From positions 1-57,822 of the forward strand of contig JABSOQ010000006.1 in assembly GCA_013216195.1 (NCBI GenBank): a stretch of DNA of 57,822 nucleotides, given 5' to 3'. The DNA is from Bdellovibrionales bacterium (GTDB lineage: Bacteria; Bdellovibrionota; Bdellovibrionia; Bdellovibrionales; UBA1609). The notes beneath the pieces were generated by a model, which saw only the letters and a list, made by a program, of their open reading frames with translations, searched no databases and had not been told where the DNA came from. Shown piece by piece: positions 32,076 to 57,822 of the stretch. The position numbers and the translations under genes were made by a program. Each line of letters begins with the position of its first letter. Within the stretch, counting starts at the first letter, position 1.

Positions 32076-33416
32076 TTAGAGAATAGATTGCATTTCTGGG
32101 CCAGCGCGCTCTACGATCAGCACGTCATCTTCACTGCCACTGATGGCAACTACGTCGCCATCCTTGAAAGACTCGCCTGACTTGCTGATGGCTTTCACAT
32201 TCTGACCTTTATGTTGTACCAGGCCCGCACCATTAATGAAATTGCTGGCACAGACGGCTCGTCCTCCAACCATCGATTTGTGAGTGCGGGGCTTTCTAAC
32301 TAAGACAAATGTCAAAATCACAAACATGATACCTAGGCAGGCCGTAATGGTGTAGACCACGGCCATGTAGTCACCACCGATGGGTTCATTGAACAGGTAG
32401 AGGCTACCTAAGAAAAAAGCGATTAACCCTCCTAGGCCTAGCACACCAAAGCCCGAGACAAATACTTCAGCGCCCAGTAAAACAACTCCAAACAGAAGCA
32501 ATAACAAGAAGCCCACGTTCACAGGCAGTGTGCTAAGGGCAATCAGCCCGAGAATCAGGCAAATCACACCAAAGACACCTGGAAAGATCAGGCCGCCGCC
32601 CAAAATCTCGATGTAGATTCCCAATGTTCCGAAAGAGGTGAACATGTAGGCCACCTGAGGATCAGCAATGTACTCAAGAAAGTAACCGATCGGCCGTTTT
32701 TCCACCTCTCGAAAGCTGATGTTGCGGCCTCTAAAGTTAATTTTTTGATCTTTAAATAGCAGCAGAATACGACCCAGTGCTTTCACCAGGTCTTCGTTAC
32801 CGGCAATGCGTTGATTGATCACGTTGGCCTCGAGAGCCTCTGTGTCAGTTAGGCTGATCGCGTCTTTCACAAACTTTTCAGCCATTTCGACGTTTCGTCC
32901 CCGGCTCTCGGCAAGGCTCCTCATGAGGGCTTGAGTGTCTTCAAAGACTTTCTTCTTAAGAGTGGGGCCAATGTCTTTACCAGAGGAGTCTATTGGTGAA
33001 GCGGCTCCAGTATTGGTACCTTCGTTCATCATAGCCCAGTGACCTGCTAGCAAAATGAATGAGCCAGCTGAAGCTGCTTGAGCTCCCGAGGGGCCAACAA
33101 CAGTGATGACAGGTTTGGGTGCCTCATTGATCAGTTGAATGATCTCGCGGGTCGACTTTAACAGGCCGCCCGGCGTGTTGATTTCAAGAACCACAGCCTG
33201 AGCATCTGTGGTCTTCAATTGTTTGAAGACCTCTTTTAGATAGTGCACTGTCGCCGGACCAATCGATCCTGTGATCGGAGCTTTGAGAATTGTCCAGTCA
33301 GCTCTTTGGTAGAGCTCTTGTTCCGCAGTTAAGGGAGCCTCCGGTTCAGGAGACTCGGCTTCAAGATAAGGAACAATAGCAAAAACTAAAAAGAGGAGAC
33401 CGAACAACTTTCTCAT
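32076..33416 (-). CDS. Long-form NfeD membrane-bound serine protease (S49/ClpP-like)
   Basis: Signal peptide; INTPGG, AASAG (Ser), GAASPI, KKVFED (Lys of the dyad); TM bundle and C-terminal OB-like domain. Confidence 0.88.
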   Translation of the reverse strand: MRKLFGLLFLVFAIVPYLEAESPEPEAPLTAEQELYQRADWTILKAPITGSIGPATVHYLKEVFKQLKTTDAQAVVLEINTPGGLLKSTREIIQLINEAPKPVITVVGPSGAQAASAGSFILLAGHWAMMNEGTNTGAASPIDSSGKDIGPTLKKKVFEDTQALMRSLAESRGRNVEMAEKFVKDAISLTDTEALEANVINQRIAGNEDLVKALGRILLLFKDQKINFRGRNISFREVEKRPIGYFLEYIADPQVAYMFTSFGTLGIYIEILGGGLIFPGVFGVICLILGLIALSTLPVNVGFLLLLLFGVVLLGAEVFVSGFGVLGLGGLIAFFLGSLYLFNEPIGGDYMAVVYTITACLGIMFVILTFVLVRKPRTHKSMVGGRAVCASNFINGAGLVQHKGQNVKAISKSGESFKDGDVVAISGSEDDVLIVERAGPEMQSIL

Positions 33417-34333
33417 GACAGATCAAGCTCCATTCCATCGAGCATGCTTTCCATGTTGAACAGGTCAGCTGGTACAATCACGTTCGAACTTGGTTTGCCC
33501 AGGCTCTGAATAGACTTGAAATACTGCTGGGCTACATCGAGCTTGATGGCTTTGTCACCACCAGGCTGGGCAATCGCTTCACCGACCTTCTCAATCGAAT
33601 CAGCAGTCGCCTCGGCAATCGATAAGATCTCTGCAGCTTCACCATCGGCGTAGTTGATGATCTCTTGCATTTTACCTTCAGAGACGTTTATCAGCTCAGC
33701 CTTTTGACCCTCAGACCTGTTGATACGACTTTCTTTGTCACCAGCGGCTTTCGCAACCATTGCTCTTTTTTCACGTTCGGCATTCACCTGACGCTCCATC
33801 GCCTCAGCGACCGAAATTGGCGGGTCGATATTTCGAATCTCGTAGCGGTGAACGATGATTCCCCACTTTGCTCCAGCTTTCGAGAGCGTCTCTACGACTT
33901 TTGCACTAATGGCATCTCTTTCTTCGAAAGTCTTGTCGAGGTCAATGGTGCCCACAACCGCACGAATTGTGGTTTGGGCCAACTGGGTAGCAGCGTACCT
34001 GTAGTTGGTAACACCGTAAGCCGCCTTCACTGGGTCTGCAACAGTCATGTAGATCACACCGTCGACTTCCACTTTCACTTCATCTTTCGAGAAGCAATCT
34101 TGCGGTGGCACATCAATTGTCTCTTCTTTGAGGTTCAGCTTAGCTGTGACCTTGTCGAGAAATGGCAAAAGAATGTGAAGGCCAGCTCCAAGAGTGGCTC
34201 GGTATTGACCAAGTCTTTCAACTATCAATACCTGCTTGTTAGGTACAATACGAATGGAACCAGCGAATCCTGCGATGATGTACAAGAAAATTAGGCCCCA
34301 AACAATAAAGCTAAATAGAGTGGTCGGTTCCAT
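33413..34333 (-). CDS. SPFH/stomatin-like protein (paraslipin/QmcA type)
   Basis: IVERLG.Y..L.AGLHIL.PF.D, QLAQTTIR, AMERQVNAEREKRA. Confidence 0.92.
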   Translation of the reverse strand: MEPTTLFSFIVWGLIFLYIIAGFAGSIRIVPNKQVLIVERLGQYRATLGAGLHILLPFLDKVTAKLNLKEETIDVPPQDCFSKDEVKVEVDGVIYMTVADPVKAAYGVTNYRYAATQLAQTTIRAVVGTIDLDKTFEERDAISAKVVETLSKAGAKWGIIVHRYEIRNIDPPISVAEAMERQVNAEREKRAMVAKAAGDKESRINRSEGQKAELINVSEGKMQEIINYADGEAAEILSIAEATADSIEKVGEAIAQPGGDKAIKLDVAQQYFKSIQSLGKPSSNVIVPADLFNMESMLDGMELDLS

Positions 34334-34334
34334 A

Positions 34335-35330
34335 TTAGAAGCCTCCTAGAGAAGGTGGGTTGCTTGGTACGCTATACTGCTGCTCTTGGCGAGGGTGAGA
34401 CTGCCCATTGCCTTGATGAGACGCACGAGAGGGCTTCGACTTTTTCATCAAAGAGTCGACCGCACCTTTAAGTGTGGCGAGTTCAACTGGGAACACAGAA
34501 ACGCTAGAGTTTTTGATGATGTTTTCAACTTTCTTAACGAACTGCTCGGTGAGCTTCATTTTTACAGCGAGGTCTCCGCCTGGTTTTTGAATTGCAGCAG
34601 CCACCATTTTCACGCCTTGGGCTGTTGCATCAGCAACGGCAGAGATCTCTCGGGCTCGACCTTTTGCTTCGTTAATTCGTCTTTGTTTTTCACCCTCTGA
34701 GTGATTGATCGCCTCTTGCCTGTAGCCCTCAGAAACCAAAATCTGAGACTCTCTTTCAGCTGATGCCAAAATCACCTCTGCACGACGTTGTCGTTCAGCT
34801 TCCATTTGCTTTTCAAGGGTGTGCACCACACCCTTTGATGGAGAGATGTTCTTCACTTCGTAACTCAGAACCTTTACGCCCCAAGGGTCTGAGGCTTTAT
34901 CAATTTCGGTTACGATCGATTCGTTGAGGTTTTCTCTCTCAGCAAAAGTCTGGCTAAGGGTGAGTTTACCAATCTCAGATCTCATGGTGGTCTGAGCCAG
35001 GTTGATACTGGCTGTGATGTAGTCTCCGATACCGTAACTAGCTCGCTTAGCATCAACGACTTTCAAGTAAACCAACCCGTCAACATCAACTCGGATGTTA
35101 TCTTTGGTGATGCAGCTCTGTGAAGGGATGTCGATCACTTGCTCTCGAATATCATGTTGGTAGGCAATTCTGTCTATAAAGGGTACGACAATGTGTAGGC
35201 CTGGTTTCAAGATGCCACGAAAGTTACCGAGCCTTTCGAGAGTGTAGTTCTCTCTCATGGGTACAATGATCAATAGGTTGTAGCCTAAAAAGATCAGTAT
35301 GATCGCAAATATTGTGAAAGCTAATAACAT
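34335..35330 (-). CDS. SPFH/stomatin-like protein (paraslipin/QmcA type), second paralog
   Basis: ERLG..LKPGLHIVVPFID, QSCITKDN..VDG, LAQTTMRSEIG, KQMEAERQRRA; start uncertain (35330 or 35357). Confidence 0.9.
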   Translation of the reverse strand: MLLAFTIFAIILIFLGYNLLIIVPMRENYTLERLGNFRGILKPGLHIVVPFIDRIAYQHDIREQVIDIPSQSCITKDNIRVDVDGLVYLKVVDAKRASYGIGDYITASINLAQTTMRSEIGKLTLSQTFAERENLNESIVTEIDKASDPWGVKVLSYEVKNISPSKGVVHTLEKQMEAERQRRAEVILASAERESQILVSEGYRQEAINHSEGEKQRRINEAKGRAREISAVADATAQGVKMVAAAIQKPGGDLAVKMKLTEQFVKKVENIIKNSSVSVFPVELATLKGAVDSLMKKSKPSRASHQGNGQSHPRQEQQYSVPSNPPSLGGF

Positions 35331-35340
35331 AGCAGCACCA

Positions 35341-35823
35341 TTATCCTTCCTCCTCATTGGATGTCGTGTTCTCAACGTCTGGTTGATCAATCAACCAAGT
35401 CATGTTGTTTCTAAAAACGATGATGGCTCGGTCTCCTTCAAAAAACTCTATGTTTTCTCTTCGACTGAGAGCTGGCCAACTTGTACCTTGGTAGCGGATT
35501 CGTCCCTCAGTTTGATGACTAACAGGAGCGAGCACTTCGACCTCTTCGCCAAAAGCATCGATGTCTTCGTCAGTGTTAGATTTGGTCTCGGTGTGTGGCA
35601 AAAACTTGTCGACCAGACCTTTAAGTGTAAACAGAAATGTGATTGAAAGAATGAACCAAATCGTGAAACCAGTCAGTGGGTCGTTGATCACACCAATGAA
35701 ATAAAGCCCACCAACGAACAGAGCACCGAAGCCTATAAAGAAGGCGATTCCACCGGGCAGAATCACCTCGGCGATAATCAGAACCACTCCAAAGATCAAC
35801 CAAAATGACTGCCAAAACTCCAT
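35341..35823 (-). CDS. Short-form NfeD (YbbJ-like) protein
   Basis: WLIFGVVLIIAEVILPG, TM segments, OB-like GRIRYQGTSWPA; ATG 35823. Confidence 0.85.
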   Translation of the reverse strand: MEFWQSFWLIFGVVLIIAEVILPGGIAFFIGFGALFVGGLYFIGVINDPLTGFTIWFILSITFLFTLKGLVDKFLPHTETKSNTDEDIDAFGEEVEVLAPVSHQTEGRIRYQGTSWPALSRRENIEFFEGDRAIIVFRNNMTWLIDQPDVENTTSNEEEG

Positions 35824-35969
35824 GATGTGTTCCCGTGTTGTGATTGCTAGAATAAAGATAATATTGATGTTTTGAGTTGAATACAAGGCATCACGACTCT
35901 GATCGAGTTTGCATTTGCGGCATAAATTGGGAATCAAGTCTTGCACGTTTACTCTGAGCCGATGATGAT

Positions 35970-45210: not shown

Positions 45211-45936
45211 TTACAAGGGGTGACGATTCAGCACTTGCAGCACGACTCTGCGGTTCTGGCCTTGGTTTTCGATGATGGGCTGGCCATCTTCGCCTCGGTG
45301 GGGCAGCTTAGGGCGAGTCTCTCCAAAACCGATGGTCATGATTTGATCTCTTCCGAAACCTTTTTGCTCGAATAGGCGCGCTACTGCACCGGCTCGAAGC
45401 GCTGAAAGCTCCCAGTTACTAGCAACTACACCTTTTTTTATTGGTACGTCATCAGTGTGACCTTCAATTAAGAACTTTTTGTCGCCTGCATTTACATCGA
45501 GTATGCCGACAATCTCTTTCATGAGAGATGTGGCATTGTCTTTCAATGCTATCGAGCCAGAATCAAAAAACAGGGTACCTTTAAAAATGAGTTTAATCCC
45601 CGTCTTCTTCACAACAGTCTCAACTTGGTCCTCGAGGCCTTTTTCTTTGATAACCGCATCGATCTTTTTTGCAAGCTTCTTGTAGGGCTCTTCAACCTCG
45701 CCTTTAAAGTACTTGGCGGTTTGATCGCCGACGTCTGCAAATTTTTGCTCATCAAAGTTTGCCATTGAAGTCATGAGAGCAAAGAACCCCATAAGAAGAG
45801 TCATCAAATCAGCGTAGCTGATTAGCCAGATGCCCTCTGAATCTTCGTGTCCACCCGAATGGCCTTCATCAAAGTCGATGAGCCCGTGCTCTTCGCTTTC
45901 TTCTCCAACCATGTCTAAGGGGTTTGCGTCGCTCAT
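45211..45936 (-). CDS. motB: Stator subunit MotB (OmpA-like peptidoglycan-binding domain)
   Basis: WLISYADLMTLLMGFF with the essential Asp; LFFDSGS, EGHTDD, NWELSALRA, NRRV. Confidence 0.93.
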   Translation of the reverse strand: MSDANPLDMVGEESEEHGLIDFDEGHSGGHEDSEGIWLISYADLMTLLMGFFALMTSMANFDEQKFADVGDQTAKYFKGEVEEPYKKLAKKIDAVIKEKGLEDQVETVVKKTGIKLIFKGTLFFDSGSIALKDNATSLMKEIVGILDVNAGDKKFLIEGHTDDVPIKKGVVASNWELSALRAGAVARLFEQKGFGRDQIMTIGFGETRPKLPHRGEDGQPIIENQGQNRRVVLQVLNRHPL

Positions 45937-45948
45937 AAATTATTCCTG

Positions 45949-46761
45949 TTAAGCTGCTTCTGCTTGTTCTGCAGATTCAGAACTTTGGTCAACTAAATCT
46001 CTCTCAGAAGGAAGAAGGTAACTTTTGATATTTTCTTCTACGAGAAGAGGGTGCTTTTTTAATCGAATCAGTTTGATTCCGTCGATCACCATTGATCTGA
46101 CTGTTTTATCTGTTCTGTTGTGTTTGGCCAGATTCTCACCAAGTGGGATCAAGATAAAGTTCGCAAATGCGATACCGTACATTGTTGCCACAAGAGCAAC
46201 AGCCATAGCAGGACCAACACCTTTAATGGCATCAGCACCACCTAGACTCTGCATGAGCGCGATCATTCCAACCACTGCACCGAGGAGACCAAAGGCAGGG
46301 GGGAACTTGGCGAGGGTGTTGAACACGTTTGAATCTTCTTCATAACGCTTAAAGTGAGTTTGAGCTCTCTTCATTAAAATGGTGTCAATGTCCCCCGCAC
46401 TCAGACCACCTTGCACCATGAGTTCAACTGCTTCTCTAAGAAAGTGAGTTTTGATCTCGGGTAGCTTTGTTTCCAGATAGTTAGGATCCTCACGGTAACC
46501 GCGTGATAAGTCTACAATTTCAGCGATAACTGATTGATAGACTGGGGTTGTTCCTCGAATCACTCTGGTTATGATCACACGAAGCATGGAGATCATTTTA
46601 CCGAATGAAAAACTAGTGAGTGCAGCCGCAAGAGTTCCACCAATCACAATCATAAAGGCGTGATAGTCTAAGAAGACGGACATATCCTTTACTGATGTTG
46701 CCATAGTCGCAATCAGTACAGTAATCGCAAGGGTGATACCTGTAATAGATGAGTAATTCAC
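45949..46761 (-). CDS. motA: Stator subunit MotA
   Basis: IVIGGT, PAFGLLGAVVGMI, GPAMAVALVATMYG..P; GTG start with GGAGG RBS. Confidence 0.93.
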   Translation of the reverse strand: MNYSSITGITLAITVLIATMATSVKDMSVFLDYHAFMIVIGGTLAAALTSFSFGKMISMLRVIITRVIRGTTPVYQSVIAEIVDLSRGYREDPNYLETKLPEIKTHFLREAVELMVQGGLSAGDIDTILMKRAQTHFKRYEEDSNVFNTLAKFPPAFGLLGAVVGMIALMQSLGGADAIKGVGPAMAVALVATMYGIAFANFILIPLGENLAKHNRTDKTVRSMVIDGIKLIRLKKHPLLVEENIKSYLLPSERDLVDQSSESAEQAEAA

Positions 46762-46919: not shown

Positions 46920-48308
46920 ATGGAGATAGAAAACCAAAAGCCTGTTCCTATGAATCTCGATGCCATTGAAATGTCTGGTGATCAGAAGGAGTGGTACGTT
47001 TACCGAGACGACAAACACTTTGGGCCCTTCAGTGTAAAGTGGATCCAGGAGTTTCTTGAGGCTGGAGCTCTAAGCCGAGAGCATTTCATTTGGAGACCCG
47101 GTCTGCAAGACTGGAAGTCGATTGAGCACTTTGAAAACTTTCGAGCTTATCTGAATGATCAAAGCCAACAGGCGATGTCAGATCTCGATTTCGAAAATAT
47201 GTTAAGAGTCGAAGACTACCGAGAGAGAGAGTTGGGTTCGCCAACTCACCCAATTCGCTGGGGTGCTCAGATCACTGAGCCTTTGCTTGAGTCAATGAGT
47301 CCGACTCAAATTCGAATTGGCTGGAACCGCTTTCATGCCGCTGTTCAAAATGGAGCTAGAACCTTTGGTTCGTGGTCTATCAAAAGCAAACTCCTGGCGG
47401 CAGTCGTGGGTATTGCGGCTATCGGAGCCCTGAACTTGAGCCTTATGGACTTCCAGTTCACGCCTCAAGAAAGAGCAATCTACGAGGCCATGAATCAGAA
47501 GTCACAAAACCTTGCGGATCAGATCTTAGATGAGGGCGAGGCGATGGCAGGTGTTTTGCCTTCACTACAGCCTTCAGAGTTCGTTATCGTCACTAATGAG
47601 ACGATGATGTCGAACAAGTTTGAGATCACTCTTGAAGGTGTGACAGGCACTCTTGTGGGTATACCCAATTTTCGCACTCGCCTTGAGATCGAGAACGGCA
47701 CAGCCCTTCATAAATTCTCTAATGCCGGTGTCTCTCTAGACCCTTTGCCTCCAGGTCAGTACTTTTTGAAGTGGAAGTGTTTAGATTGCGGGGAGGCGAA
47801 CCCACTCGTTGGCGAGTCAGCTGTATCTCAACTGTTCTTCGTAGACAAAGGCCTTTATAGGCAAAAACTCAAAGCCTACGAGGGGTCATATTTGGCTCAA
47901 GCCGGGCTTGAAAAAGATGAGCTCAAGCAGCTACACGCGGCTCTCCAGCAGCATTTTGATTTTACAATTGGTGAGTTTTCTCGAATTAACAAATTCTCTG
48001 GAGAACGACGTCGCAACCTTTGGGGCTTGCACACGCCTGAATGGCAAAAAGATCAGGGAGAATTTAAAAAGATATTCTCAAGCTTAGCCGATCCTCAGTT
48101 TTTGAATCAGCTTGTCTATAGAGACATCTATCAAGAGCTTGGTCGAGTCAGTGAAGACATTGGAAGACTGCAGTACCTGCAATCTCGTGTTTTCCAGAAT
48201 GAATCTGTTAATGAACTTTCTCAGGCATCATTACTTAGTGACAAGCTGCAAAAGCGACTTACGAAGTTGAGGTCTGAGGTTATGGGGTTAGACAGGAAGT
48301 CTAACTGA
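46920..48308 (+). CDS. GYF_2 (DUF4339) domain membrane protein
   Basis: WYVYRDDKHFGPFS..I..FL..G.LS....IWRPGLQDWKSI is the GYF_2 signature; one TM (LLAAVVGIAAIGALNLSLM); C-terminal Ig-like and helical region. Confidence 0.8.
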   Translation: MEIENQKPVPMNLDAIEMSGDQKEWYVYRDDKHFGPFSVKWIQEFLEAGALSREHFIWRPGLQDWKSIEHFENFRAYLNDQSQQAMSDLDFENMLRVEDYRERELGSPTHPIRWGAQITEPLLESMSPTQIRIGWNRFHAAVQNGARTFGSWSIKSKLLAAVVGIAAIGALNLSLMDFQFTPQERAIYEAMNQKSQNLADQILDEGEAMAGVLPSLQPSEFVIVTNETMMSNKFEITLEGVTGTLVGIPNFRTRLEIENGTALHKFSNAGVSLDPLPPGQYFLKWKCLDCGEANPLVGESAVSQLFFVDKGLYRQKLKAYEGSYLAQAGLEKDELKQLHAALQQHFDFTIGEFSRINKFSGERRRNLWGLHTPEWQKDQGEFKKIFSSLADPQFLNQLVYRDIYQELGRVSEDIGRLQYLQSRVFQNESVNELSQASLLSDKLQKRLTKLRSEVMGLDRKSN

Positions 48309-48352
48309 ACAATTGATGTTTTAGCCTAACGTCGCAATCTGGCACACGTGCA

Positions 48353-48380
48353 TAAAGTGTCAGAATGAAACGACCGATGC
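48353..48380 (+). promoter_or_regulatory. Putative sigma28 promoter
   Basis: TAAAGTGT...ACCGATGC (TAAA-N16-ACCGATGC) upstream of the AAGGA RBS and ATG 48409. Confidence 0.4.
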
Positions 48381-48408
48381 TAAAGAGTACAAATTGTTAA
48401 GGAAAGTC

Positions 48409-51400
48409 ATGGAAGATTCAAATTTCTCTAAAGAGAACGGCCGCAATAAAATTACAAATATCGCTCACGGTGAAGCCATCGAACGCAAACCAGAAGCCTC
48501 TTCTGAAGCGATAGAGAAGATCGACTTTGCAGGCGAGAACCTCTCATTCATGCAAAAAGAGATCGACAATCTGAAACAGATTAAGACTCAACTTGAGCAT
48601 CAGCGGGAGAGAGTGAGAACTGAGAACCAGAAACTCACACAATCACTAGCGACAGAGCGAAAAAAGGCTCGCGATCTTGTAGATCAATCTGAGAGATCTC
48701 TTTATAGAGTATTCGAATTAGAAGAAGAGCTCAAATCTACCAGCCATAGGCTGAAGTCTCTAAAAGAAGAGGCCCACCAAAAGCAAAACCAACTCGATCA
48801 GCTTCGAGTTGAACTTTCAGAAAACGAAGACCGGCTCTTGCAACTGCAAGGTGACAATGAGTCTCTGCAGTTGACTACAAACTCTCAACGTCAGCGCATT
48901 GTTGAGCTTGAGGCAGAGGTCATAGAGCTGCGGTCTGAGCAAAAAAGAGTCTCACAAGTTTTAGATGAGAAGATGGACGCCATTGAGCAAGAGAAAAGCT
49001 CTTCGAGTGTCGAGTTGTCACGCTTGACTCGTGAGGTGGAAGACAAAACGGCTGAGATCACAGCCTTTCGTGAGAGCGTGCAGTCAGAGAAACAACGCAC
49101 TCAAAAACTGAAAGATTTGGGCGAAAAGCAACAAGAGACCATTCAAGGCCTCGAGGAGCGCGTTGAGTTTCTGGGTGGTCAGTTGGATCGCTGGAAAAGT
49201 TACGGTGCTGAGCGTGATGATCTTATTGATAGCAAAGAGCGGGAGCTTGATGTCTTCAGACAAGAGATTGTCACTTTAAAAGAGCAGATCACTGATCAAA
49301 AGATGAGCTTCAAAAAAGCTTTGCAGACAGAGAAGTACTCACTTGAAGACAATCTTAGCTCAGCTCAAAAAGCACATGCTGAGATCGAATTTCGTTTTGC
49401 AAATGCCAAAGAGGCTTGGTTAGAAGAGAGTCGTAAGTTCCAAAAAGAAATTGAAGAAAAAGATGACCAAATTATTGGTCTCGAGCAGCGTGTTGCTTTC
49501 GATGCTGAGCGATTTGAAGCCAAGCTTGAATCAGTTCAGATCGACAATCAGCGAGAAAAAGAGCGATTGCAAGAGAGAATAGACAACTTGATTGCTCACA
49601 GAGATGAGGAGCTTAAGAAACTCGAAGACTCTTGGAGAGAAAAATCAGCTGGGCAACAGACCGAAGCCAAATCGAGACTTGAAGAGTTTAGAGAAAGCGC
49701 CAAGCGAGAAGCCGAAGAGAAATTACAAGATCTACGAACTCAGCTTGCAGAGGTTAAAGAGCACAACCGTTTACAGGTCGTTGGCTTGAAGCAGGAGAAT
49801 ATTGAAAAAATCAAACAGCTTGAAAGCGACTATGAGCAAAGGTTGGCTCAAGTTGAAGAAATTCGTCAAAAGCGAATTGAGGAGCTGTCTGAAGAACTGG
49901 CTGACACGAAAAGCCGTGTCGAGTCTGATCGAAGCGGGCTGGTTTCAGAGCTTGAAAAGTCAGCTGAGCAAAAAATCGCTCGCATTGAGAAAGAGGCCGC
50001 AACCACTATTAGCAGAATGAAGTCAGACTATGAGGAGCAGTTAAAAGAATCCGAGAATCAGGCTGCTAAGAGTTTGCAAAGAATCAAAGATGAGCAACGT
50101 GTCATCATTGAAGAGCTAAAGGCTCAGCACTTTGCCGCTCAAGAGAGAGCCAGGCAAGACCGCGCCGAGGCGATTGAAGTTCTGCAAAGTGAACACGCCC
50201 AGATTATTGAGAGCATAAAGGCAGAGCGCGATCAGAGCCTTAAAAACCTTACCGATGAGAAAGACGGCGAGATCAGACGCCTTACAGCTGAGCTTGAAGA
50301 AATTGAAGGCCGCGTTGGCGAGAAACTCTCACTTGAGATTCAGAACATGAAGCTTCGACATTCAGAAGCTATGGAAAAGGCTGAAAAACAGCATCAAAGC
50401 GAGATGCAAAGAGTGCGTGCTGAGCACTCTGAACGCTTTGCGGAGCTCGAGCGAGCGAGCACTGAGTCTATCAACCAGATTCAGCAAGAGCGTGATGAAA
50501 TCTTGAGTGAGCTAAAGGCTGAACATCAACATCAAATCGCCAGTCTGACTGAGACCTTTGAGCGCAAGATCTCTGAAGAAAGTGAAAAGTTTCAGGGCAT
50601 CAAGCAAGAGCTTCAGACCAAGTTGAATGAGGCAGTTTCTACTTCTAAAGTTGAAATCAATGGCGAAAAGGCGAGGCATGCTGAGATTGAGCGTGGGCTA
50701 ACAGACCAAATTCGTGATTTGAACTCAGAATTCGCAACAGAGCGAAATCTTGTCGTTCAGCTGAGAGAGCGAATTGAAGAATTGAAAGAAACGGTACGCT
50801 TCACCAATGAAAAATCAGAGAAGCAAATCGAAACATTGAATCAAAAGCTCCAGCAATCTTCTGAACGTGTTCTCGATTTGCGGGCAACCCTTAAAGATTC
50901 AGCTGCACAAGCTCTTCGCGAGCACGAAGTCGAAATTGCCGAGTTGAAAGAGTCTTACGATGCGAAAATTCGTGAGCAGCTTGAAGAAACTCACAGTGAG
51001 CGTGAAGCTATTGAGCAAGACAAGCGCAAGACGATTGGTAAGCTTCAAATGGAACTGAAGCAAGTGCGGCGTGAACTCGAAGAGAGCCGGGAGGCTTTCA
51101 AGCAATTTGAAGGCAGTGCCAACCTTCGCGATGAAACCAATACAGCCAAGATCAAAAATCTCAAAGAGCAGCACAATGCACTCATGGCTGAAAAGCGCGA
51201 GTTAGATAAAAGAGCCGCTGATCTGGGTGGGGAACTTGAAAAGGTAAAGAATCTGCACCGTGTTGCCAAAACTGAAATCAAAGACCTTGAGCAAAGAAAG
51301 CAGGAGTTCAAACAAAAAGCTGCAGAAGCCAGAGCTGAAGTAAAAGCCGCTGGTCAGCATATTGAAGCAGTTAAAAAGTCGCAGCAGGCGTTAGAAAATG

Positions 51401-52122
51401 AGATGAACTCTCGCGAAGAAGCTTCAGACAAGACTCAGGCTGATTTGAATAGAGTGATAGAGGCAAAAGCTTCAGAGATTGAGAAACACAAAGAAGATGC
51501 GGCTGAATTTAAGACTCGCATTGAGAGTTTGCAGGCTGAGATTCAAAAGCTCGAGGCCAGAGCTCGCGAGGCAGAAGAGTTGAGAGGCCAGCTAAGTGAA
51601 GCGAATGCCAAGGTTGCTGTGTTTGAGAAGCAATCTGATTCGCTTAAGGCTGGTTTAGTAAAGGTCGACAAAGAGCTAGACTCTCTATCTGATCAGAAGA
51701 AAGAGATGGAGCTGAATGAAATCAACATGAAGTCTGAGTTCGAGCGCTTAAAATCTCGTGAATCTCAAATGAGTCAGTTCACAAAGCAGCTCGATGAGCA
51801 AAAAGCAGAGCTCAAGAAGTTTGCAAAGCGTTTGGCCTATGAGATCAAGTCGTCTAAAGCTTTCCATCCGTTAAGGTCGTTGCTAAAGCTAACCGAAGCC
51901 GAGATCTCGAGCCTTGAGGTGAAACTTAGCAAAACAGCTCCTTTGGCTGTTGAAAGGGCGCCTCTCCAAGCACAGTTTGAAAAGCTTGTGCATCAGAGAG
52001 ACATGATTAAAAAGTCGATTGCCCAGTCAGAGATCGAGATTGAAAAACAGGCAAGGGACGTTGTGGCCCTAACCCAAAGGTCAGTCTTGGTGCCACTGCC
52101 ACCATTGCCACCTAAAAAATAG
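48409..52122 (+). CDS. Giant cytoplasmic coiled-coil protein with C-terminal proline-rich motif
   Basis: About 1237 aa, almost entirely E/K/Q/L/R-rich helical; no signal peptide, TM segment or Walker motifs; ends VPLPPLPPKK. Confidence 0.85.
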   Translation: MEDSNFSKENGRNKITNIAHGEAIERKPEASSEAIEKIDFAGENLSFMQKEIDNLKQIKTQLEHQRERVRTENQKLTQSLATERKKARDLVDQSERSLYRVFELEEELKSTSHRLKSLKEEAHQKQNQLDQLRVELSENEDRLLQLQGDNESLQLTTNSQRQRIVELEAEVIELRSEQKRVSQVLDEKMDAIEQEKSSSSVELSRLTREVEDKTAEITAFRESVQSEKQRTQKLKDLGEKQQETIQGLEERVEFLGGQLDRWKSYGAERDDLIDSKERELDVFRQEIVTLKEQITDQKMSFKKALQTEKYSLEDNLSSAQKAHAEIEFRFANAKEAWLEESRKFQKEIEEKDDQIIGLEQRVAFDAERFEAKLESVQIDNQREKERLQERIDNLIAHRDEELKKLEDSWREKSAGQQTEAKSRLEEFRESAKREAEEKLQDLRTQLAEVKEHNRLQVVGLKQENIEKIKQLESDYEQRLAQVEEIRQKRIEELSEELADTKSRVESDRSGLVSELEKSAEQKIARIEKEAATTISRMKSDYEEQLKESENQAAKSLQRIKDEQRVIIEELKAQHFAAQERARQDRAEAIEVLQSEHAQIIESIKAERDQSLKNLTDEKDGEIRRLTAELEEIEGRVGEKLSLEIQNMKLRHSEAMEKAEKQHQSEMQRVRAEHSERFAELERASTESINQIQQERDEILSELKAEHQHQIASLTETFERKISEESEKFQGIKQELQTKLNEAVSTSKVEINGEKARHAEIERGLTDQIRDLNSEFATERNLVVQLRERIEELKETVRFTNEKSEKQIETLNQKLQQSSERVLDLRATLKDSAAQALREHEVEIAELKESYDAKIREQLEETHSEREAIEQDKRKTIGKLQMELKQVRRELEESREAFKQFEGSANLRDETNTAKIKNLKEQHNALMAEKRELDKRAADLGGELEKVKNLHRVAKTEIKDLEQRKQEFKQKAAEARAEVKAAGQHIEAVKKSQQALENEMNSREEASDKTQADLNRVIEAKASEIEKHKEDAAEFKTRIESLQAEIQKLEARAREAEELRGQLSEANAKVAVFEKQSDSLKAGLVKVDKELDSLSDQKKEMELNEINMKSEFERLKSRESQMSQFTKQLDEQKAELKKFAKRLAYEIKSSKAFHPLRSLLKLTEAEISSLEVKLSKTAPLAVERAPLQAQFEKLVHQRDMIKKSIAQSEIEIEKQARDVVALTQRSVLVPLPPLPPKK

Positions 52123-52269: not shown

Positions 52270-52276
52270 CATGGGT

Positions 52277-53215
52277 ATGAAAACTCATCAGAAGTCTTGG
52301 TACACTTTAGTTTGGTTTCCGGTAGTTCTCTCGTTAGTGGGGTGTTCAACGATATTGGCACCTTTTACTCCTGAGGAATCACCTTATGGTTTTTATCCTC
52401 CAGGGGTTGACCCTAGAAATGCGAGGTCTGTTCCTGCAGATATTGCACAAGACATTCAGTCAATATCTGAAGAGGGCGTTATCTATAGGTTTAAAAAAGA
52501 AGAAAGAGAAGAGCTGGTGAAGCCAAAAGCACCTTTGGCACAAGCTGCTGAAGAGGCTAAAGAGCCTGTTGGAGAGCCAGTTCTTGAAGTCGAAAAAGAG
52601 CCCGGACCACTTGCTGGAAGTGCTGGGCCCTTGGCCTCTCGAAAGCGAGTTGAGACCTCAGGGCCTCTACAGAAGAGATCGCGAGTGAAATTGCGGTCTC
52701 CAGGGTCTAAGGGTGGTAAGACTATCAACTACGTCGTGAAACAGGGTGACACGTTGATGGAGATCTCTTTTGACAAACACGGCGACTACCTAAGATGGCG
52801 TGAGATCTATCGTGACAACAGAAACAAGATGACTCATTGGACGAAAATGAACGTCGGCACTGTTCTCACTATCAATAACGTCAAGTACGTCTACATTCAA
52901 AAGAATGGTAAGCCTTACTTCATTCAAAAGGGTGACACTTTGAAATCTATTGCCCAGAAGCTGTATGGTTCGCCATTAATGTGGAAGGCCTTGTGGAAGA
53001 ACAACCCTCAGTTGATTCGAAAACCAAACAAGCTTTATGCAGGCTTCACTCTTTACTATCAACCTAAAGGCAAGCAGCAAAACGCTCCAGAGGCGAGAAC
53101 ACCAACTAGCCAAGGTGTGCTTCAGAAGCAAATTGTGAAAGAGGATCCAGTGGGATCAACTGCAAATTCGGCAACAGAAATTCTGAAAGAAGAGTTTCAA
53201 TCGACAGACCAGTAG
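52277..53215 (+). CDS. Lipoprotein with two LysM peptidoglycan-binding domains
   Basis: Lipobox LVG-C; YVVKQGDTLMEIS...WREIY..N and YFIQKGDTLKSIA..LYG...W..LW..N; alternative start 52271. Confidence 0.88.
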   Translation: MKTHQKSWYTLVWFPVVLSLVGCSTILAPFTPEESPYGFYPPGVDPRNARSVPADIAQDIQSISEEGVIYRFKKEEREELVKPKAPLAQAAEEAKEPVGEPVLEVEKEPGPLAGSAGPLASRKRVETSGPLQKRSRVKLRSPGSKGGKTINYVVKQGDTLMEISFDKHGDYLRWREIYRDNRNKMTHWTKMNVGTVLTINNVKYVYIQKNGKPYFIQKGDTLKSIAQKLYGSPLMWKALWKNNPQLIRKPNKLYAGFTLYYQPKGKQQNAPEARTPTSQGVLQKQIVKEDPVGSTANSATEILKEEFQSTDQ

Positions 53216-53338: not shown

Positions 53339-54415
53339 ATGTCTGCGTTTAGGTACAGTCTCGCTTTTTTGTTCATCACTTTGAGCCTTTTTTCTGCAGC
53401 GGGCATTTGTGAAGAGGAAACCGATGTCACGGTTCGAGATGAAAAAGAAAGAGCGCTCTGGGTTGGCTATGTCTTTCGCAGAGAAGATCAGGGGCCAAGG
53501 GTAAAAGACTTAGACATCCCCGTAACACGCACCCCTGTCTATTTGGTTCCGCATGGTCAAATCGTAAGACCCCTAGTGAATATAAAAGTAACTCACCCTC
53601 TCGGCGAAGGGCGCACTCTGTTTGTGAATGGTGTGAAACTTAATACTGAGCAAAAGCCTGGTACTGAGCTGCAACGGGGCTCTCTTTACGTTTACTTAAA
53701 TTCTACGATCAGTGATATTCGAGTAGAGCTGAAGAACGCAGAAAGTAAGGTCGTGGAGAGCGAGTCGATCTACGTGTTTGCACCAGAGGCCAGAGGGCTT
53801 CAGGTGACCTCACCGTTTCGCTCTTTGTTCTTTAAGGTGGGAACAGCTTGGCTATTCTACGGGCAATCAAGTTACGGAACCTTTTCTGCCAATTCGCTCT
53901 CTCTTGGTTTGCATTATCAATCGCCAGAGCGCGGCCAGACCTGGGGTTTGCTGGGCGATGCCGATTTGACTTTGTTTACCTATGACTCTTCTCCAGAAGA
54001 TCTCAACCCACAGTTTTACGAGGCGATATTTGGGGTTACAAAGAAGAGTCAATTGATCAAGTCACCACTTTGGCGGAGCCGTTGGGTTTTTGCTGCGAAC
54101 ACTGTTGGGGTAGTGGCTTTTGGTAGCCCATTTGGTTTTAGTGGTTTATATGGCCCAACTGTAGGTTACAAAACAGAGTACTACTTGAACAACAAGAGTA
54201 GCCTCGGCTTTGATTTTTACTACACACTCTACTCAGAGTTAGCGATCACTTTTCAAGATGATCGCACCTACGAACTTGAGGGTTCGTTTCATTATAGAAC
54301 AGACACTCTCAATCAGTATGTGTTCAATGTCTCATATTCGAACAGTGAGTTCGCCGCGGGCAGTGAGCGAATTGAGCTCGAACTGCTGTTATTCTCATTT
54401 GAGTTCAGTCTCTAA
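53339..54415 (+). CDS. Putative outer-membrane beta-barrel protein with N-terminal Ig-like domain
   Basis: Signal peptide; C-terminal ~200 aa of alternating aromatic/polar strands ending LFSFEFSL (beta-signal-like). Confidence 0.62.
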   Translation: MSAFRYSLAFLFITLSLFSAAGICEEETDVTVRDEKERALWVGYVFRREDQGPRVKDLDIPVTRTPVYLVPHGQIVRPLVNIKVTHPLGEGRTLFVNGVKLNTEQKPGTELQRGSLYVYLNSTISDIRVELKNAESKVVESESIYVFAPEARGLQVTSPFRSLFFKVGTAWLFYGQSSYGTFSANSLSLGLHYQSPERGQTWGLLGDADLTLFTYDSSPEDLNPQFYEAIFGVTKKSQLIKSPLWRSRWVFAANTVGVVAFGSPFGFSGLYGPTVGYKTEYYLNNKSSLGFDFYYTLYSELAITFQDDRTYELEGSFHYRTDTLNQYVFNVSYSNSEFAAGSERIELELLLFSFEFSL

Positions 54416-54551
54416 CTGAGCTTTCAAAAACTGATTAAAATCTTTAGATATTTCTCAGACTGAAACGTTTCGAGCTTTATAGAAATCGCTCTTAAGTCGA
54501 TAAGATTATTGGAAGAAAGTAGTTAAACCAGAACGTTAGTTGGGATCTGAT

Positions 54552-57500
54552 ATGGGATCAAAAAATGCCATTACAAATTTTTTGAGTATAACAATGAACA
54601 AGAAGTTCACGCTTGCTGCGTTGCTTATTGTTCAGGTTTCGTTAACTGGTTGTTTGCCAGAAGACGAAGCTTTACCATCCAGCTCGGGTGATGCCACCGT
54701 AAGGTACACCGGCTTTGAAGGTTTGGAGTCTGTAGAGACACTCTCTGCCACAAAGTTAAAACTCCGCTGGACGGCTTCTACCAACCCAAATGTTGTGGGC
54801 TACAACATCTACGACACGACCTTGTTCTCTCTTCCAAGACTGGTCAAAACTGTCAATGCTGGCCGCAGTGAGGCAACACTTGCTGGCTTGTCTGAAGGTT
54901 TCTTCTACAACTTCCGAGTACGCGCAATCGATTCAAACGGAGTCGAAGACAGCAACATGAACGATCTCGTCGGTATCCCATACGACGGTATGACAGATGT
55001 TACAGTTTTGAGCAGTACCTCTGCTCGAGTCACATTTAGCTCAGTGCCTGAGAGTGAAGCCTCTGAGGTGAACATTTACTGTAAGTCTGATTCGCAGCCA
55101 GAGTTCACAAGATTTGCTAATATCCGAAACCTCACCCTTAGCAGTTTTGATCTTACAGGCTTGGTGGCAAGCGAAACTTACACTTGTAAAGCCTTGGTAA
55201 CTGTTGATGGCAGTGAAGACTCAAACCAAAACGAATTCACTTTTGTGCCATTAGGGCAAGCCGATTCAATTGCCTTTTCAGCTCAGCCTGGCAATGCAGC
55301 GGCTGGTGATCTTCTTACCACTCAACCAGTAGTTGAGATCTTAGACAGCAATGGTAACCGAGTCACTGGTGGTCCAGACTCCTCAGCTCTGATCACGTTG
55401 ATCATCTCACCTGATTCGCCATCGATTGGTGCTGTTCAAGGAACATTTGCAGTCAACGCCGTACAAGGTGTTGCCACCTTTTCTGATCTGAATATTCGTG
55501 AAGCCGGTATAAAAATCTTGAGAGCTGTTAAGTCTGACACTTCAAGTGAGGTGTTCGGTACGGCAATTATGAACGTTGACTCAGGTACATTCAATATAAC
55601 GCCTGGTAACGTTTCGGCGGCACTTTCTTCAGTAACAATCGACCCAGCTGTTCCTCCAGCAGACCCTTTAATTGCGAATGGTCTCGATGCCTACACGGTT
55701 AATATTGCTCTGAGAGATGAGTTTGGAAACGCAGTACAGGGCACTACACCTCAATTTGCCACCAACATAGTTGGTGATTTTATGATTCAACCCTTCTTGC
55801 CAACAGACGATAATGGCCAGACCTCAGGTTCGTTGTCGACTACGGTTGCCGACACGACTCCGGCTCGTATTTTGAATCTAGTGTCTCCGGCTGGTCTGAC
55901 ATCAGTTCAAGTTCTAGCTCCGTTCCAGCCAGGTCCAGCTTCTAGATTAGCTTTTAGCCGTCAGCCTACAAACTCGCCAGCTGGTGAGCTTGCGATGGCA
56001 GAGGTTCGCGTGAGTGTACAAGATGCACAGGGTAACTTGATTACCACAGGCTCAGATGCAAGCTCTGTCATTGCGCTTGCAATCGCTTCAAACGTCGGTG
56101 GTGCAGTACTTTCAGGTACAGTTTCTAAAAACGCAGTCAACGGCGAAGCGGTTTTTAATGACCTGGGTATCGACATCACAGATACAGGTTACCGATTGGT
56201 GGCAAGTTCAGGTGCCCTTACACCAGCATTCTCAAATAGTTTTAATGTCACTGCTGGTATTCCACGAGTCATTGCCATTTTCGGAGATGACTCTGTGCTT
56301 TCTGGTGATTGTAGCGATGCCATTACGATTCAGTTGCAAGATCTGGGTGGTAACCCAGCAGCAGCGCTTTCGAACACCACTGTGCAGCTGAGTGGTTTAA
56401 GTAACGCCAACTTTTACACAAGCAGTACCTGTGGCGGTACTCCAGTTAGTAGCAATATCACTTTCACGCCAGGTACGAGTACGAGAACTTACTATCTTCG
56501 TGGAGTGCCGGTTGAGCAGTTGAGTATTCTTGGTGAAGACGCCTCGTCGGTTCTGACTGATGGTAACTTCACAGTGAACGTGAGCCCGAACAAAATGGCG
56601 ATCTCCGCTTTGATGCCTAGCCCGCCGGCAGCTCCAGGTACATCTTTGAGTGTTCCAGCAGGTCAGTGTTCGAGCAGAATCACCATCACGCCGCTTGCAG
56701 ATGATGGAACACCGGGACCAGTTTCAGAGTCTATCGGCGTTTTGCTAAACGGTGTTGTAGGTTCACAAGCCCGCTTTTACTCTGACCCTAGTTGTACAAC
56801 AGAGATTGACCCAGGAGACTTTGAGCTGCAGCAAAACCCTGCACCCAATGTTGAGACGGTGCTTTATTTGATGGATCCGCGCGGTGAAACACTAAATGTG
56901 AATGTTGCAGATCCTGACGGTGAGATCACTACGACCTCTCTGCCTCAAGAGATTATCGTGACGGCTTCAAACATCGATCTCAGTGGTCCATCAACAGTTG
57001 TGGCAGGTCAATGTTCTTCGGCTTTCCAGATTCAACTGTTAGATACGCTTAGTAATCTTGTGCCGACGTCAGGCAACTTGAGTTTGCAAATCAATGGTGT
57101 CAATGGTGTTTCAACTACTGGTCAGTTCTACACTTCACCTGCATGCTCGGGCGCGCCAAGTAATAGTGCGACGATCGTGCCTGATGCTTCAAGCTCAATT
57201 AGCATTTACTTTAGAGGTTTTCAGGCTGAGGTGCTTGGCATTTCAATTGAAGACCCTGCTGGAAACCTAATTGAGTCGCAGACCATAGATTTAACAGTGT
57301 CACCTTCGGCCTTAACGATCTCAGGGCCTGGTGGAGTGAGCTCAGACAGCAGTGAGTGCTCGGGGCCATTCGATATTCAGCCTCTTGATGGTGTGGGATC
57401 GGTAGCAAACGCAGTGACTCCAATCGAAGTGAACCTGACGGGAGTGGGTATCGCTGGTGGCTTCTACGTCGACAACGATTGCGAAACACTGACCACAGCC

Positions 57501-57822
57501 GTGACTATCGCACCAGGAACAAATGTAGAGCAGGTCTACTTCTTGGGCCAGTATCCAGATACACTCAATCTAACTGCATCAGATGCAAACGCTGTGTTAA
57601 CAGCTGCAATATTGCCGTGGAATGTGCTAGCAGACTGGAGCTGGTTAGGTACCTCATCGACCCTGTTTGATGATAACGGTGACCCTTTGGGTTTCATAAC
57701 GGGCGAGCGACAAGTTGCCGCTGCATTTGATGGTATTCGTGGTGGTATTCAGGTCGAAATGTCAGATGATGGCAACTACCTTTATGTTGCCGAGTTAAAT
57801 CGCCACCGGGTCACAAAATTTG
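54552..57822 (+). CDS. Giant surface lipoprotein (FN3 x2, invasin/Big-like Ig domains, Cys-paired Ig repeats, start of NHL beta-propeller); 3'-truncated by the window
   Basis: Absent from the ORF track, consistent with no stop before the window end; the frame was checked by hand at the start, at several internal points and at the end. M(54552 or 54594)..VSLTG-C lipobox; LRWTAS..GYNIY..GL..GFFYNFRVRAID (FN3); GVATFSDL (Big-like); ends GNYLYVAELNRHRVTKF (NHL). Confidence 0.85.
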   Translation, partial: MGSKNAITNFLSITMNKKFTLAALLIVQVSLTGCLPEDEALPSSSGDATVRYTGFEGLESVETLSATKLKLRWTASTNPNVVGYNIYDTTLFSLPRLVKTVNAGRSEATLAGLSEGFFYNFRVRAIDSNGVEDSNMNDLVGIPYDGMTDVTVLSSTSARVTFSSVPESEASEVNIYCKSDSQPEFTRFANIRNLTLSSFDLTGLVASETYTCKALVTVDGSEDSNQNEFTFVPLGQADSIAFSAQPGNAAAGDLLTTQPVVEILDSNGNRVTGGPDSSALITLIISPDSPSIGAVQGTFAVNAVQGVATFSDLNIREAGIKILRAVKSDTSSEVFGTAIMNVDSGTFNITPGNVSAALSSVTIDPAVPPADPLIANGLDAYTVNIALRDEFGNAVQGTTPQFATNIVGDFMIQPFLPTDDNGQTSGSLSTTVADTTPARILNLVSPAGLTSVQVLAPFQPGPASRLAFSRQPTNSPAGELAMAEVRVSVQDAQGNLITTGSDASSVIALAIASNVGGAVLSGTVSKNAVNGEAVFNDLGIDITDTGYRLVASSGALTPAFSNSFNVTAGIPRVIAIFGDDSVLSGDCSDAITIQLQDLGGNPAAALSNTTVQLSGLSNANFYTSSTCGGTPVSSNITFTPGTSTRTYYLRGVPVEQLSILGEDASSVLTDGNFTVNVSPNKMAISALMPSPPAAPGTSLSVPAGQCSSRITITPLADDGTPGPVSESIGVLLNGVVGSQARFYSDPSCTTEIDPGDFELQQNPAPNVETVLYLMDPRGETLNVNVADPDGEITTTSLPQEIIVTASNIDLSGPSTVVAGQCSSAFQIQLLDTLSNLVPTSGNLSLQINGVNGVSTTGQFYTSPACSGAPSNSATIVPDASSSISIYFRGFQAEVLGISIEDPAGNLIESQTIDLTVSPSALTISGPGGVSSDSSECSGPFDIQPLDGVGSVANAVTPIEVNLTGVGIAGGFYVDNDCETLTTAVTIAPGTNVEQVYFLGQYPDTLNLTASDANAVLTAAILPWNVLADWSWLGTSSTLFDDNGDPLGFITGERQVAAAFDGIRGGIQVEMSDDGNYLYVAELNRHRVTKF
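56290..57620 (+). repeat. Four ~115-aa Cys-paired repeats (xxCS...FYxxxxC)
   Basis: GDCS/FYTSSTC, GQCS/FYSDPSC, GQCS/FYTSPAC, SECS/FYVDNDC; first Cys codons at 56310, 56667, 57012 and 57357. Confidence 0.75.

Follow-up and report, generated by a model that had tools for sequence, protein, structure and literature searches.

A GYF-domain membrane protein and a polyproline-tailed coiled-coil protein as a predicted docking pair beside motAB in an uncultured Bdellovibrionales bacterium

In eukaryotes, the GYF domain of CD2BP2 binds the PPPGHR repeats of CD2. The only experimentally supported bacterial interaction between a GYF domain and a proline-rich sequence found in our literature searches is that of GltJ with AglZ, in Myxococcus gliding: isothermal titration calorimetry (ITC) and nuclear magnetic resonance (NMR) report micromolar binding of the GltJ GYF domain to the proline-rich sequence of AglZ, residues 123-213 (PMC11135422). 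The same report describes binding through the beta-sheet, the face on which prokaryotic GYF domains carry their most conserved residues, and no binding of a eukaryotic GYF ligand. An AlphaFold model with weak support from the predicted aligned error suggests the TPR protein GltI as a possible further partner of the GltJ domain (PMC11761067), and a GYF-like cytoplasmic domain has been reported in Bd0075 of Bdellovibrio bacteriovorus (PMC12034629). Here we analyse the whole 57,822-nucleotide stretch (hereafter the window) formed by positions 1 to 57,822 of contig JABSOQ010000006.1 (assembly GCA_013216195.1, Bdellovibrionales bacterium), in which the gene for a GYF-domain membrane protein (GYF-TM) stands directly upstream of the gene for a very long, coiled-coil-type protein ending in VPLPPLPPKK. 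Our preferred reading, to which we assign a probability of roughly 0.6, is that the GYF domain docks directly on this polyproline tail. The original prediction had proposed such a receptor-ligand pair, tethering a long filament to the inner membrane, and its appeal to the GltJ-AglZ precedent agrees with the published ITC and NMR measurements (PMC11135422).

The polyproline tail and the GYF domain

The pair comprises the following features, with amino acids abbreviated aa, transmembrane TM and AlphaFold2 AF2.
46920..48308, plus strand: GYF-TM gene, 462 aa, with GYF domain, linker, one TM helix, beta-sandwich and helical bundle.
46992..47132, plus strand: GYF_2 domain, the proposed receptor (aa 25-71; Pfam, orthologue profile, Foldseek).
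47379..47447, plus strand: predicted TM helix (aa 154-176; hydropathy and AF2).
47547..48302, plus strand: predicted periplasmic part, beta-sandwich (aa 210-305) and four long helices (aa 310-461; AF2).
48394..52122, plus strand: coiled-coil gene, 1242 aa from TTG 48394 or 1237 aa from ATG 48409.
51703..52074, plus strand: C-terminal three-helix domain of the coiled-coil protein (alignment A4, AF2).
52090..52119, plus strand: VPLPPLPPKK tail with a PPxPP motif, the proposed ligand (sequence, A4, AF2).

The coiled-coil protein has nine prolines in 1242 residues, at positions 33, 1159, 1183, 1190, 1234, 1236, 1237, 1239 and 1240, so that a single one lies in the first 1150 residues and five lie within the last nine (nucleotides 52093-52113). 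This count confirms the original description of a nearly proline-free protein with a polyproline end; the hypergeometric probability that at least five of nine prolines fall inside the last ten residues is 1.3e-9. Among 4696 mechanically defined open reading frames (ORFs) of at least 100 aa in the same genome, only two have PP.PP in their last 20 residues, namely the coiled-coil protein and a 140-aa ORF of doubtful reality.

The tail is conserved well beyond this genome. From the same order we assembled 46 ORFs carrying the C-terminal domain (43 plus three added, with three pairs coming from sister genomes) and called the motif wherever at least four prolines fell within a seven-residue window of the last 50 residues. 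It is present in 39 of the 46, always directly after the third helix, with few prolines elsewhere in each protein. The motif occupies identical columns in 35 of the 37 sequences of alignment A4, P134, P135 and P137 of the C-terminal fragment being at least 90% conserved and the P-P-x-P-P columns nearly invariant. The coiled coil of genome G021, for example, has the C-terminus FVPTPPLPPKK, and many homologues continue for 10-55 variable residues beyond the motif. The seven ORFs without it are those of G045, G181 and G219 (all from a single genus), the second, weak copy of G301, and those of G271, G275 and G235, the last with APPPRGF only. Searching 1.84 billion cluster representatives (50%-identity clusters) with a profile of the C-terminal domain, which includes the motif columns and thereby slightly biases the ranking, returned 260 matches at E<=1e-3, of which 205 reach E<=1e-10. 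Among the best 150 of these representatives, PP.PP or PPPP directly follows the domain in 121 (52 PPLPP, 50 PPPPP, 5 PPMPP, 5 PPPP and 9 with V, A, T, I or S at the middle position), and a weaker proline cluster is seen in 12. A minority of the global representatives end in [VI]FD and have in common an N-terminal EVFEIL-like motif. No feature of the coiled-coil family is better conserved than the polyproline tail.

The remainder of the protein abounds in E, K, L, A, Q and R, and ATG 48409, which has a Shine-Dalgarno-like AAGGAA 5 nt upstream, appears to be a likelier start than TTG 48394. Hydropathy analysis revealed no hydrophobic segment, and no Pfam domain exceeded its threshold, Response_reg included, the sole match being a sub-threshold one to Fib_alpha; together with the proline positions, this bears out the earlier statement that the protein, unlike AglZ, has no receiver domain and carries its motif at the C-terminus. 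The term "coiled coil" holds only in part. Heptad (3.5-residue) periodicity of L, I, V, M and F exceeds the 95th percentile of shuffled sequences at aa ~29-280 and ~730-1150, whereas it does not rise above the shuffles at aa ~365-720 (window 49480-50550), unlike both flanks. A coiled coil is thus supported for about half of the protein, and the remainder looks helical; the middle third may follow another repeat register or form no coiled coil. The last 140 residues were predicted by AF2 with a pLDDT (predicted local distance difference test) value of 93.9 as three helices (residues 2-51, 57-78 and 86-125 of the fragment) followed by the non-helical, proline-bearing tail. Foldseek matches to this domain were confined to generic helical bundles, none reaching E<=0.001, and a homology search with the C-terminal 143 residues gave one match, a "hypothetical protein". 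In two genera (loci L031, L065 and L067-L072), a second conserved stretch, K-I-K-x-A-L-x-G-[IV]-[DN]-W-N-Y-...-G-F-I-E-x-H-E, lies near the N-terminus of the coiled-coil protein; it is only faintly discernible in the protein of the window and may be a second docking site.

That the gene directly upstream carries a GYF_2 domain was also confirmed: PF14237 matches aa 25-71 of GYF-TM with E 1.8e-10 and 40.8 bits, against a gathering cut-off of 25.8. Using a profile of 26 orthologues, the closest solved relative of the domain is the GYF domain of GltJ (AgmX), PDB 7z3c_A (E 1.8e-13), and structural comparison with the same entry yields a Foldseek probability of 1.00, a TM(target) of 0.58 and 25% identity. 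Residues G35, P36, W58 and W65 are invariant in all 26 orthologues. The AF2 model of GYF-TM, built on these orthologues with a mean pLDDT of 78.3, shows a GYF fold at aa 25-75 preceded by 24 residues with one short helix before the domain, then a poorly predicted linker, the TM helix, the sandwich and the four long helices. Hydropathy places a single hydrophobic segment at about aa 153-180, modelled as a helix at 154-176, and this segment is the strongest hydrophobic stretch, and a single one, in 26 of 26 orthologues. Summed over them, lysine and arginine number 97 in the 15 residues before the TM segment versus 47 in the 15 after it. Because of this excess and the lack of a signal peptide, we infer that the GYF domain lies in the cytoplasm. 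Since it is N-terminal to the sole TM segment and the coiled-coil protein has no hydrophobic segment, the predicted topology would put the domain and the tail in one compartment. On the other side of the membrane, the predicted sandwich resembles fn3-type domains (Foldseek probability 1.0, TM(target) ~0.6); no TonB-like chain appears among the Foldseek matches of the periplasmic part, and a protein-atlas search with the same part gave no usable match.

Co-inheritance of the pair and the case for docking

A search of related loci with the single GYF-TM protein as query detected no relative. In a first sample of 60 related genomes, full-length GYF-TM relatives were found in four, and the order motB-motA / GYF-TM / coiled coil recurs among them. 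Across 384 genomes of the order, the profile of the coiled-coil C-terminal domain matches 53 genomes at E<=0.01, with about 45 places at E<1e-10 spread over four families. For co-inheritance, the periplasmic part of GYF-TM alone (alignment A5) served as query in these 384 genomes, so that other GYF proteins were not counted; it is found in 42 genomes (E<1e-30). Both genes occur in 41 genomes, two of which (G025 and G378) show a partial coiled-coil match only, and neither occurs in 340, these being counts from related, non-independent genomes. The coiled coil is found alone in G271 (93% complete) and G275 (73%), both copies lacking the motif, and GYF-TM alone in G268 (81%). The gene pair travels together, and its distribution over the four families is patchy. 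Patchiness extends even into a single genus, since searches for the periplasmic domain of GYF-TM and for the C-terminal domain of the coiled coil found nothing in G001 and G002, which belong to the genus of the window (G002 is 96% complete).

The two genes adjoin in 31 loci, on the same strand in 27, convergently in three and divergently in one, and 19 of the 27 same-strand pairs overlap or are separated by at most 21 nt; within the window, no terminator-like site lies between them. Four genomes have the coiled-coil gene without a GYF neighbour and a full-length GYF-TM gene elsewhere, always directly after motA-motB, and motAB adjoins GYF-TM in 22 loci. In G021, a second pair lies about 26 kb from the first. 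It consists of a 165-aa soluble protein that is nearly a GYF domain only (Pfam GYF E 9.3e-9; sequence WFVFREQKHFGPF...) and an 835-aa coiled-coil paralogue, in which EAPPLPPKD follows a C-terminal domain like that of the main coiled coil; the GYF-only gene overlaps the start of the paralogue gene by 4 nt. A further paralogue of 499 aa with an IPIPPLPPTD tail (L070 4677-6176 and L071 5651-7150) has no GYF gene alongside and sits amid unrelated genes of the DUF1552 and DUF1592 families.

One genus departs from the rule. In its genomes G045, G181 and G219, GYF-TM lies directly beside a convergent coiled-coil gene (L032 8259-10019, L073 4693-6267 and L116 6444-9212) whose product has no C-terminal polyproline and is mostly shorter, at 524 and 586 aa in two genomes and 922 aa in G219. 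Their relatives in the global library are the proteins with the [VI]FD end and the EVFEIL-like motif. The fourth genome of the genus, G182, has the usual gene order and a PLPPVPE tail, and among the sampled genomes the loss of the tail beside GYF-TM is confined to this genus. As read from the sequence, the GYF domain of G219 has a leucine at the otherwise invariant W58 position. We considered that the motif might have moved to the N-terminus in this lineage and rejected this as a rule: an N-terminal proline cluster (PPASPP, aa 42-47, G181 type) is present in one of the four tail-less proteins.

The original proposal of a receptor-ligand tether gains support from the conservation of the motif, the co-inheritance and adjacency of the genes and the GltJ-like GYF domain, while "filament" and "tether" stay interpretation. 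Likewise, the co-conservation of tail and GYF gene that it had put forward as a check is borne out by the 39 of 46 ORFs and by 41 joint versus three single genomes, and breaks down in the minority formed by G045, G181 and G219, a case that the original prediction had counted as contrary to it. Several observations weigh against direct docking. In these three genomes GYF-TM is kept next to a tail-less partner, and in G045 and G181 the GYF signature residues are nevertheless intact. Seventeen of the best 150 global representatives lack the motif, one of them being a truncated match. The known ligand of GltJ is a 90-residue proline-rich region, compared with a five-proline tail here. Co-inheritance and adjacency indicate membership of one system, which fits parts that do not touch equally well. 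Finally, the genome encodes four GYF_2 proteins, hence three besides GYF-TM that are other possible receptors. Two are soluble GYF-GYF-PilZ proteins according to Pfam (C33:9309-10271 and C13:35443-36153; L200 and L201), which are likely cyclic di-GMP receptors and possibly read proline motifs in a cyclic di-GMP-dependent manner. The third (C271:10349-12523; L202) has 724 aa, two GYF_2 domains, a long acidic linker and one TM segment; its C-terminal part resembles the sandwich-plus-helices layout of GYF-TM, and its gene has housekeeping neighbours. A complex prediction combining GYF aa 15-88 and the 45 C-terminal residues of the coiled coil, each entered as an alignment, scored 0.03 against a mark of 0.32 in an uncontrolled run and carries no weight for or against binding.

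These additional GYF proteins give substance to a different arrangement, which we consider unlikely, in which the tail would dock on one of the GYF-PilZ proteins or the 724-aa protein, instead of or in addition to GYF-TM, and recruit a regulator to the rod, while GYF-TM binds something else. Such an arrangement would suit the motif-bearing paralogue without a GYF gene alongside in G266 and G267, as well as the three genomes that keep GYF-TM without the tail; it does not account for the fact that no other GYF gene lies in the cluster, nor for the co-inheritance of GYF-TM with the coiled coil (41 genomes with both, three with one, 340 with neither) and the frequent overlap of their genes. We give a similarly low probability to the explanation that PPxPP is not a GYF ligand but a helix stop, a rigid polyproline-II spacer or a site for MotA, the FliG-like protein described below or the membrane, with the GYF domain binding another target. 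The variable residues that follow the motif in many homologues mean that a terminal position is not required, the GYF gene is retained in places where the motif has been lost, and the contact predicted between the GltJ GYF domain and GltI (PMC11761067) implies that GYF partners need not be polyproline. Yet a near-invariant P-P-x-P-P at fixed columns between variable flanks is what a recognition motif typically looks like, the sole folded cytoplasmic domain of the co-inherited neighbour belongs to a proline-binding class, and the duplicate pair of G021 again couples a GYF domain with the motif. That the tail stands beside a GYF gene by mere chance in one genome is extremely improbable in view of the hypergeometric value given above, the recurrence of the motif in the order and in 121 of the best 150 global representatives, and the 31 adjacent loci. 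Taken together, we favour the direct docking of the GYF domain on the polyproline tail.

Under this docking reading, GYF-TM would be anchored in the inner membrane, its N-terminal GYF domain facing the cytoplasm, and its neighbour would form a cytoplasmic rod over 1200 residues long. At the end of the rod, a short, exposed PPxPP stretch would protrude from a folded three-helix domain. Binding of this stretch by the GYF domain, on the model of the GltJ GYF domain and the AglZ proline-rich sequence, would fix the end of the rod, which may act as a scaffold, to a MotAB-associated inner-membrane protein. If the two do bind, the GYF/polyproline joint would amount to a reusable device for attaching long cytoplasmic coiled coils to membrane machines, beyond Myxococcus gliding. 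It would also reduce the ligand to a five-proline motif at a defined place, for which peptides and point mutants are far easier than for a 90-residue disordered region.

The motAB cluster and a possible envelope machine

The pair is flanked by the following genes.
45211..45936, minus strand: MotB-type stator subunit, 241 aa, with plug and OmpA-like peptidoglycan-binding domains.
45949..46761, minus strand: MotA-type stator subunit, 270 aa, divergent from the GYF gene.
52271..53215, plus strand: LysM protein with a lipoprotein-like N-terminus, 314 aa (Pfam LysM E 6.6e-7).
53339..54415, plus strand: protein with a signal-peptide-like N-terminus, 358 aa, no Pfam or NCBIfam match.
54540..57821, plus strand: giant fn3/Ig-like surface protein, more than 1094 aa, running off the window (Pfam fn3 E 5e-10).

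MotB matches Pfam MotB_plug (E 3.4e-14) and OmpA (E 6.9e-17), its best NCBIfam models being the flagellar MotD/MotB ones, under their equivalog cut-offs. MotA matches Pfam MotA_ExbB (E 1.2e-20) and, in NCBIfam, scores 137 bits with PomA, against an equivalog cut-off of 341, and 29 bits with TolQ. By these profile scores, the MotAB of the window is a flagellar-type stator, and we call it a divergent member because the NCBIfam equivalog cut-offs are not reached. The genome has four MotA paralogues including that of the cluster and, separately, a canonical FliG; given this FliG and the three further MotA paralogues, the MotAB of the cluster would constitute an extra stator set. No other flagellar genes lie inside the cluster.

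On the other side of the pair, the LysM gene lies directly downstream of the coiled-coil gene in most loci, and an LVGC lipobox can be read in its product. The 358-aa gene is kept beside the LysM gene in related loci and probably encodes an outer-membrane protein. The giant protein has matches to Big_1 and Invasin_D3 below their cut-offs and a homologue at the equivalent position in G021. In another family of the order, the cluster is contiguous with genes for a TPR lipoprotein, a FliG-like membrane protein of about 600 aa and an outer-membrane-like protein of about 220 aa. The similarity of the ~600-aa protein to FliG_M and FliG_C is weak and lies in its cytoplasmic part, with FliG_M over its cut-off, at 29.1 bits, in one orthologue and the other orthologues staying under it. 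The genome of the window encodes such a trio on contig C244 (262-3369; L115), consisting of a TPR lipoprotein of 218 aa, a 596-aa protein and an outer-membrane-like protein of 247 aa. The 596-aa protein has a signal or anchor sequence, a periplasmic part, a TM segment and a cytoplasmic part that reaches 15.8-17.9 bits with FliG_C, below the cut-off. Homologues of the trio lie inside the cluster, with motAB, GYF-TM and the coiled coil, in L089, L032 and L103. Elsewhere in the window, on the minus strand at 32076-35946, there is an unrelated operon encoding an NfeD-type membrane protease, two SPFH/Band_7 proteins and a small NfeD-C protein.

Viewed in this setting, the docking pair would form part of a larger, patchily distributed module of uncultured Bdellovibrionales that comprises MotAB, the LysM lipoprotein, outer-membrane proteins and the giant fn3/Ig-like protein and, elsewhere in the genome, the TPR lipoprotein and the membrane protein with the weakly FliG-like cytoplasmic part. 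The periplasmic sandwich and helical bundle of GYF-TM could reach the LysM and outer-membrane parts, and a role in surface motility or adhesion may be surmised. We tentatively extend this to a bolder proposal, with the odds leaning against it, namely that the GYF-tail pair is the cytoplasmic joint of an undescribed envelope-spanning machine powered by flagellar-type MotAB and not by a motor of TolQR type. This would be a second, independently assembled apparatus of the "bacterial focal adhesion" type, serving surface movement or prey contact and re-using the joint of Myxococcus gliding. Its parts would be MotAB, GYF-TM as transducer, the coiled coil as a scaffold of more than 100 nm and the membrane-anchored FliG-like protein, along with the TPR and LysM lipoproteins, two outer-membrane proteins and the giant fn3/Ig adhesin. 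A conserved gene set here links a flagellar-type stator to non-flagellar envelope proteins and provides a candidate for a new machine in uncultured relatives of predatory bacteria; the machine surrounding the pair may be new in kind.

Comparison with known systems

Full-text literature searches, together with the available text of a 2025 mBio survey of MotAB relatives (PMC12505986), contained no description of this pair or cluster. Within Bdellovibrio, Bd0075 is comparable, by its published description, as a membrane protein with a cytoplasmic GYF-like domain. It differs in having TPR domains outside the cytoplasm and Bd0474 as its predicted partner, and the accessible part of the report does not mention a coiled coil with a polyproline tail (PMC12034629). 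The likeness to flagellar motors lies in the flagellar-type MotA and MotB encoded next to the pair and in the weakly FliG-like membrane protein of related clusters.

With eukaryotic GYF proteins, the window shares a small alpha/beta domain of a kind that recognises proline-rich peptides and is used as an adaptor. The canonical eukaryotic-type signature is given as GP[YF]xxxx[MV]xxWxxx[GN]YF (PMC12034629). The corresponding segment in the window, GPFSVKWIQEFLEAGAL, has I in place of M/V, F in place of W and no YF, so that only GPF is kept, and the tail contains no PPG, unlike eukaryotic ligands. A departure from the signature is likewise reported for GltJ and for the majority of bacterial GYF domains, whose beta-sheet face is used instead (PMC11135422).

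The closest parallel is with GltJ and AglZ. Both pairs combine a single-pass inner-membrane protein carrying a cytoplasmic, bacterial-type GYF domain, a topology that is predicted in our case, with a very long cytoplasmic protein that bears a proline-rich element and has, in our case over about half of its length, coiled-coil character. Outer-membrane parts and a proton-channel motor from the MotA/TolQ/ExbB superfamily are likewise common to the two systems. The architectures nevertheless diverge. According to the available description of GltJ (PMC11761067), that protein has a zinc ribbon and a long MglA-binding linker before its GYF domain, both absent from GYF-TM (the zinc ribbon as judged by Pfam), and a TonB-C-like domain where GYF-TM is predicted to have a periplasmic sandwich and helical bundle. 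The GltJ equivalog model NF033761 scores 31.5 bits with GYF-TM against a cut-off of 450, aligning only aa 19-79 with positions 144-204 of the 671-position profile. The coiled coil of the window lacks the receiver domain of AglZ and carries a five-proline motif after its C-terminal three-helix domain, compared with the 90-residue region near the N-terminus of AglZ, which lies between its receiver domain and its coiled coil, and the motor is a flagellar-type MotAB with plug and OmpA domains rather than the TolQR-like AglRQS. We therefore rejected the possibility that the pair is the Agl-Glt system of this organism, as it has no zinc ribbon, TonB-like or receiver domain, fails NF033761 and adjoins a MotAB-type motor. 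By analogy, the pair appears to work like GltJ-AglZ, from which it is distinct.

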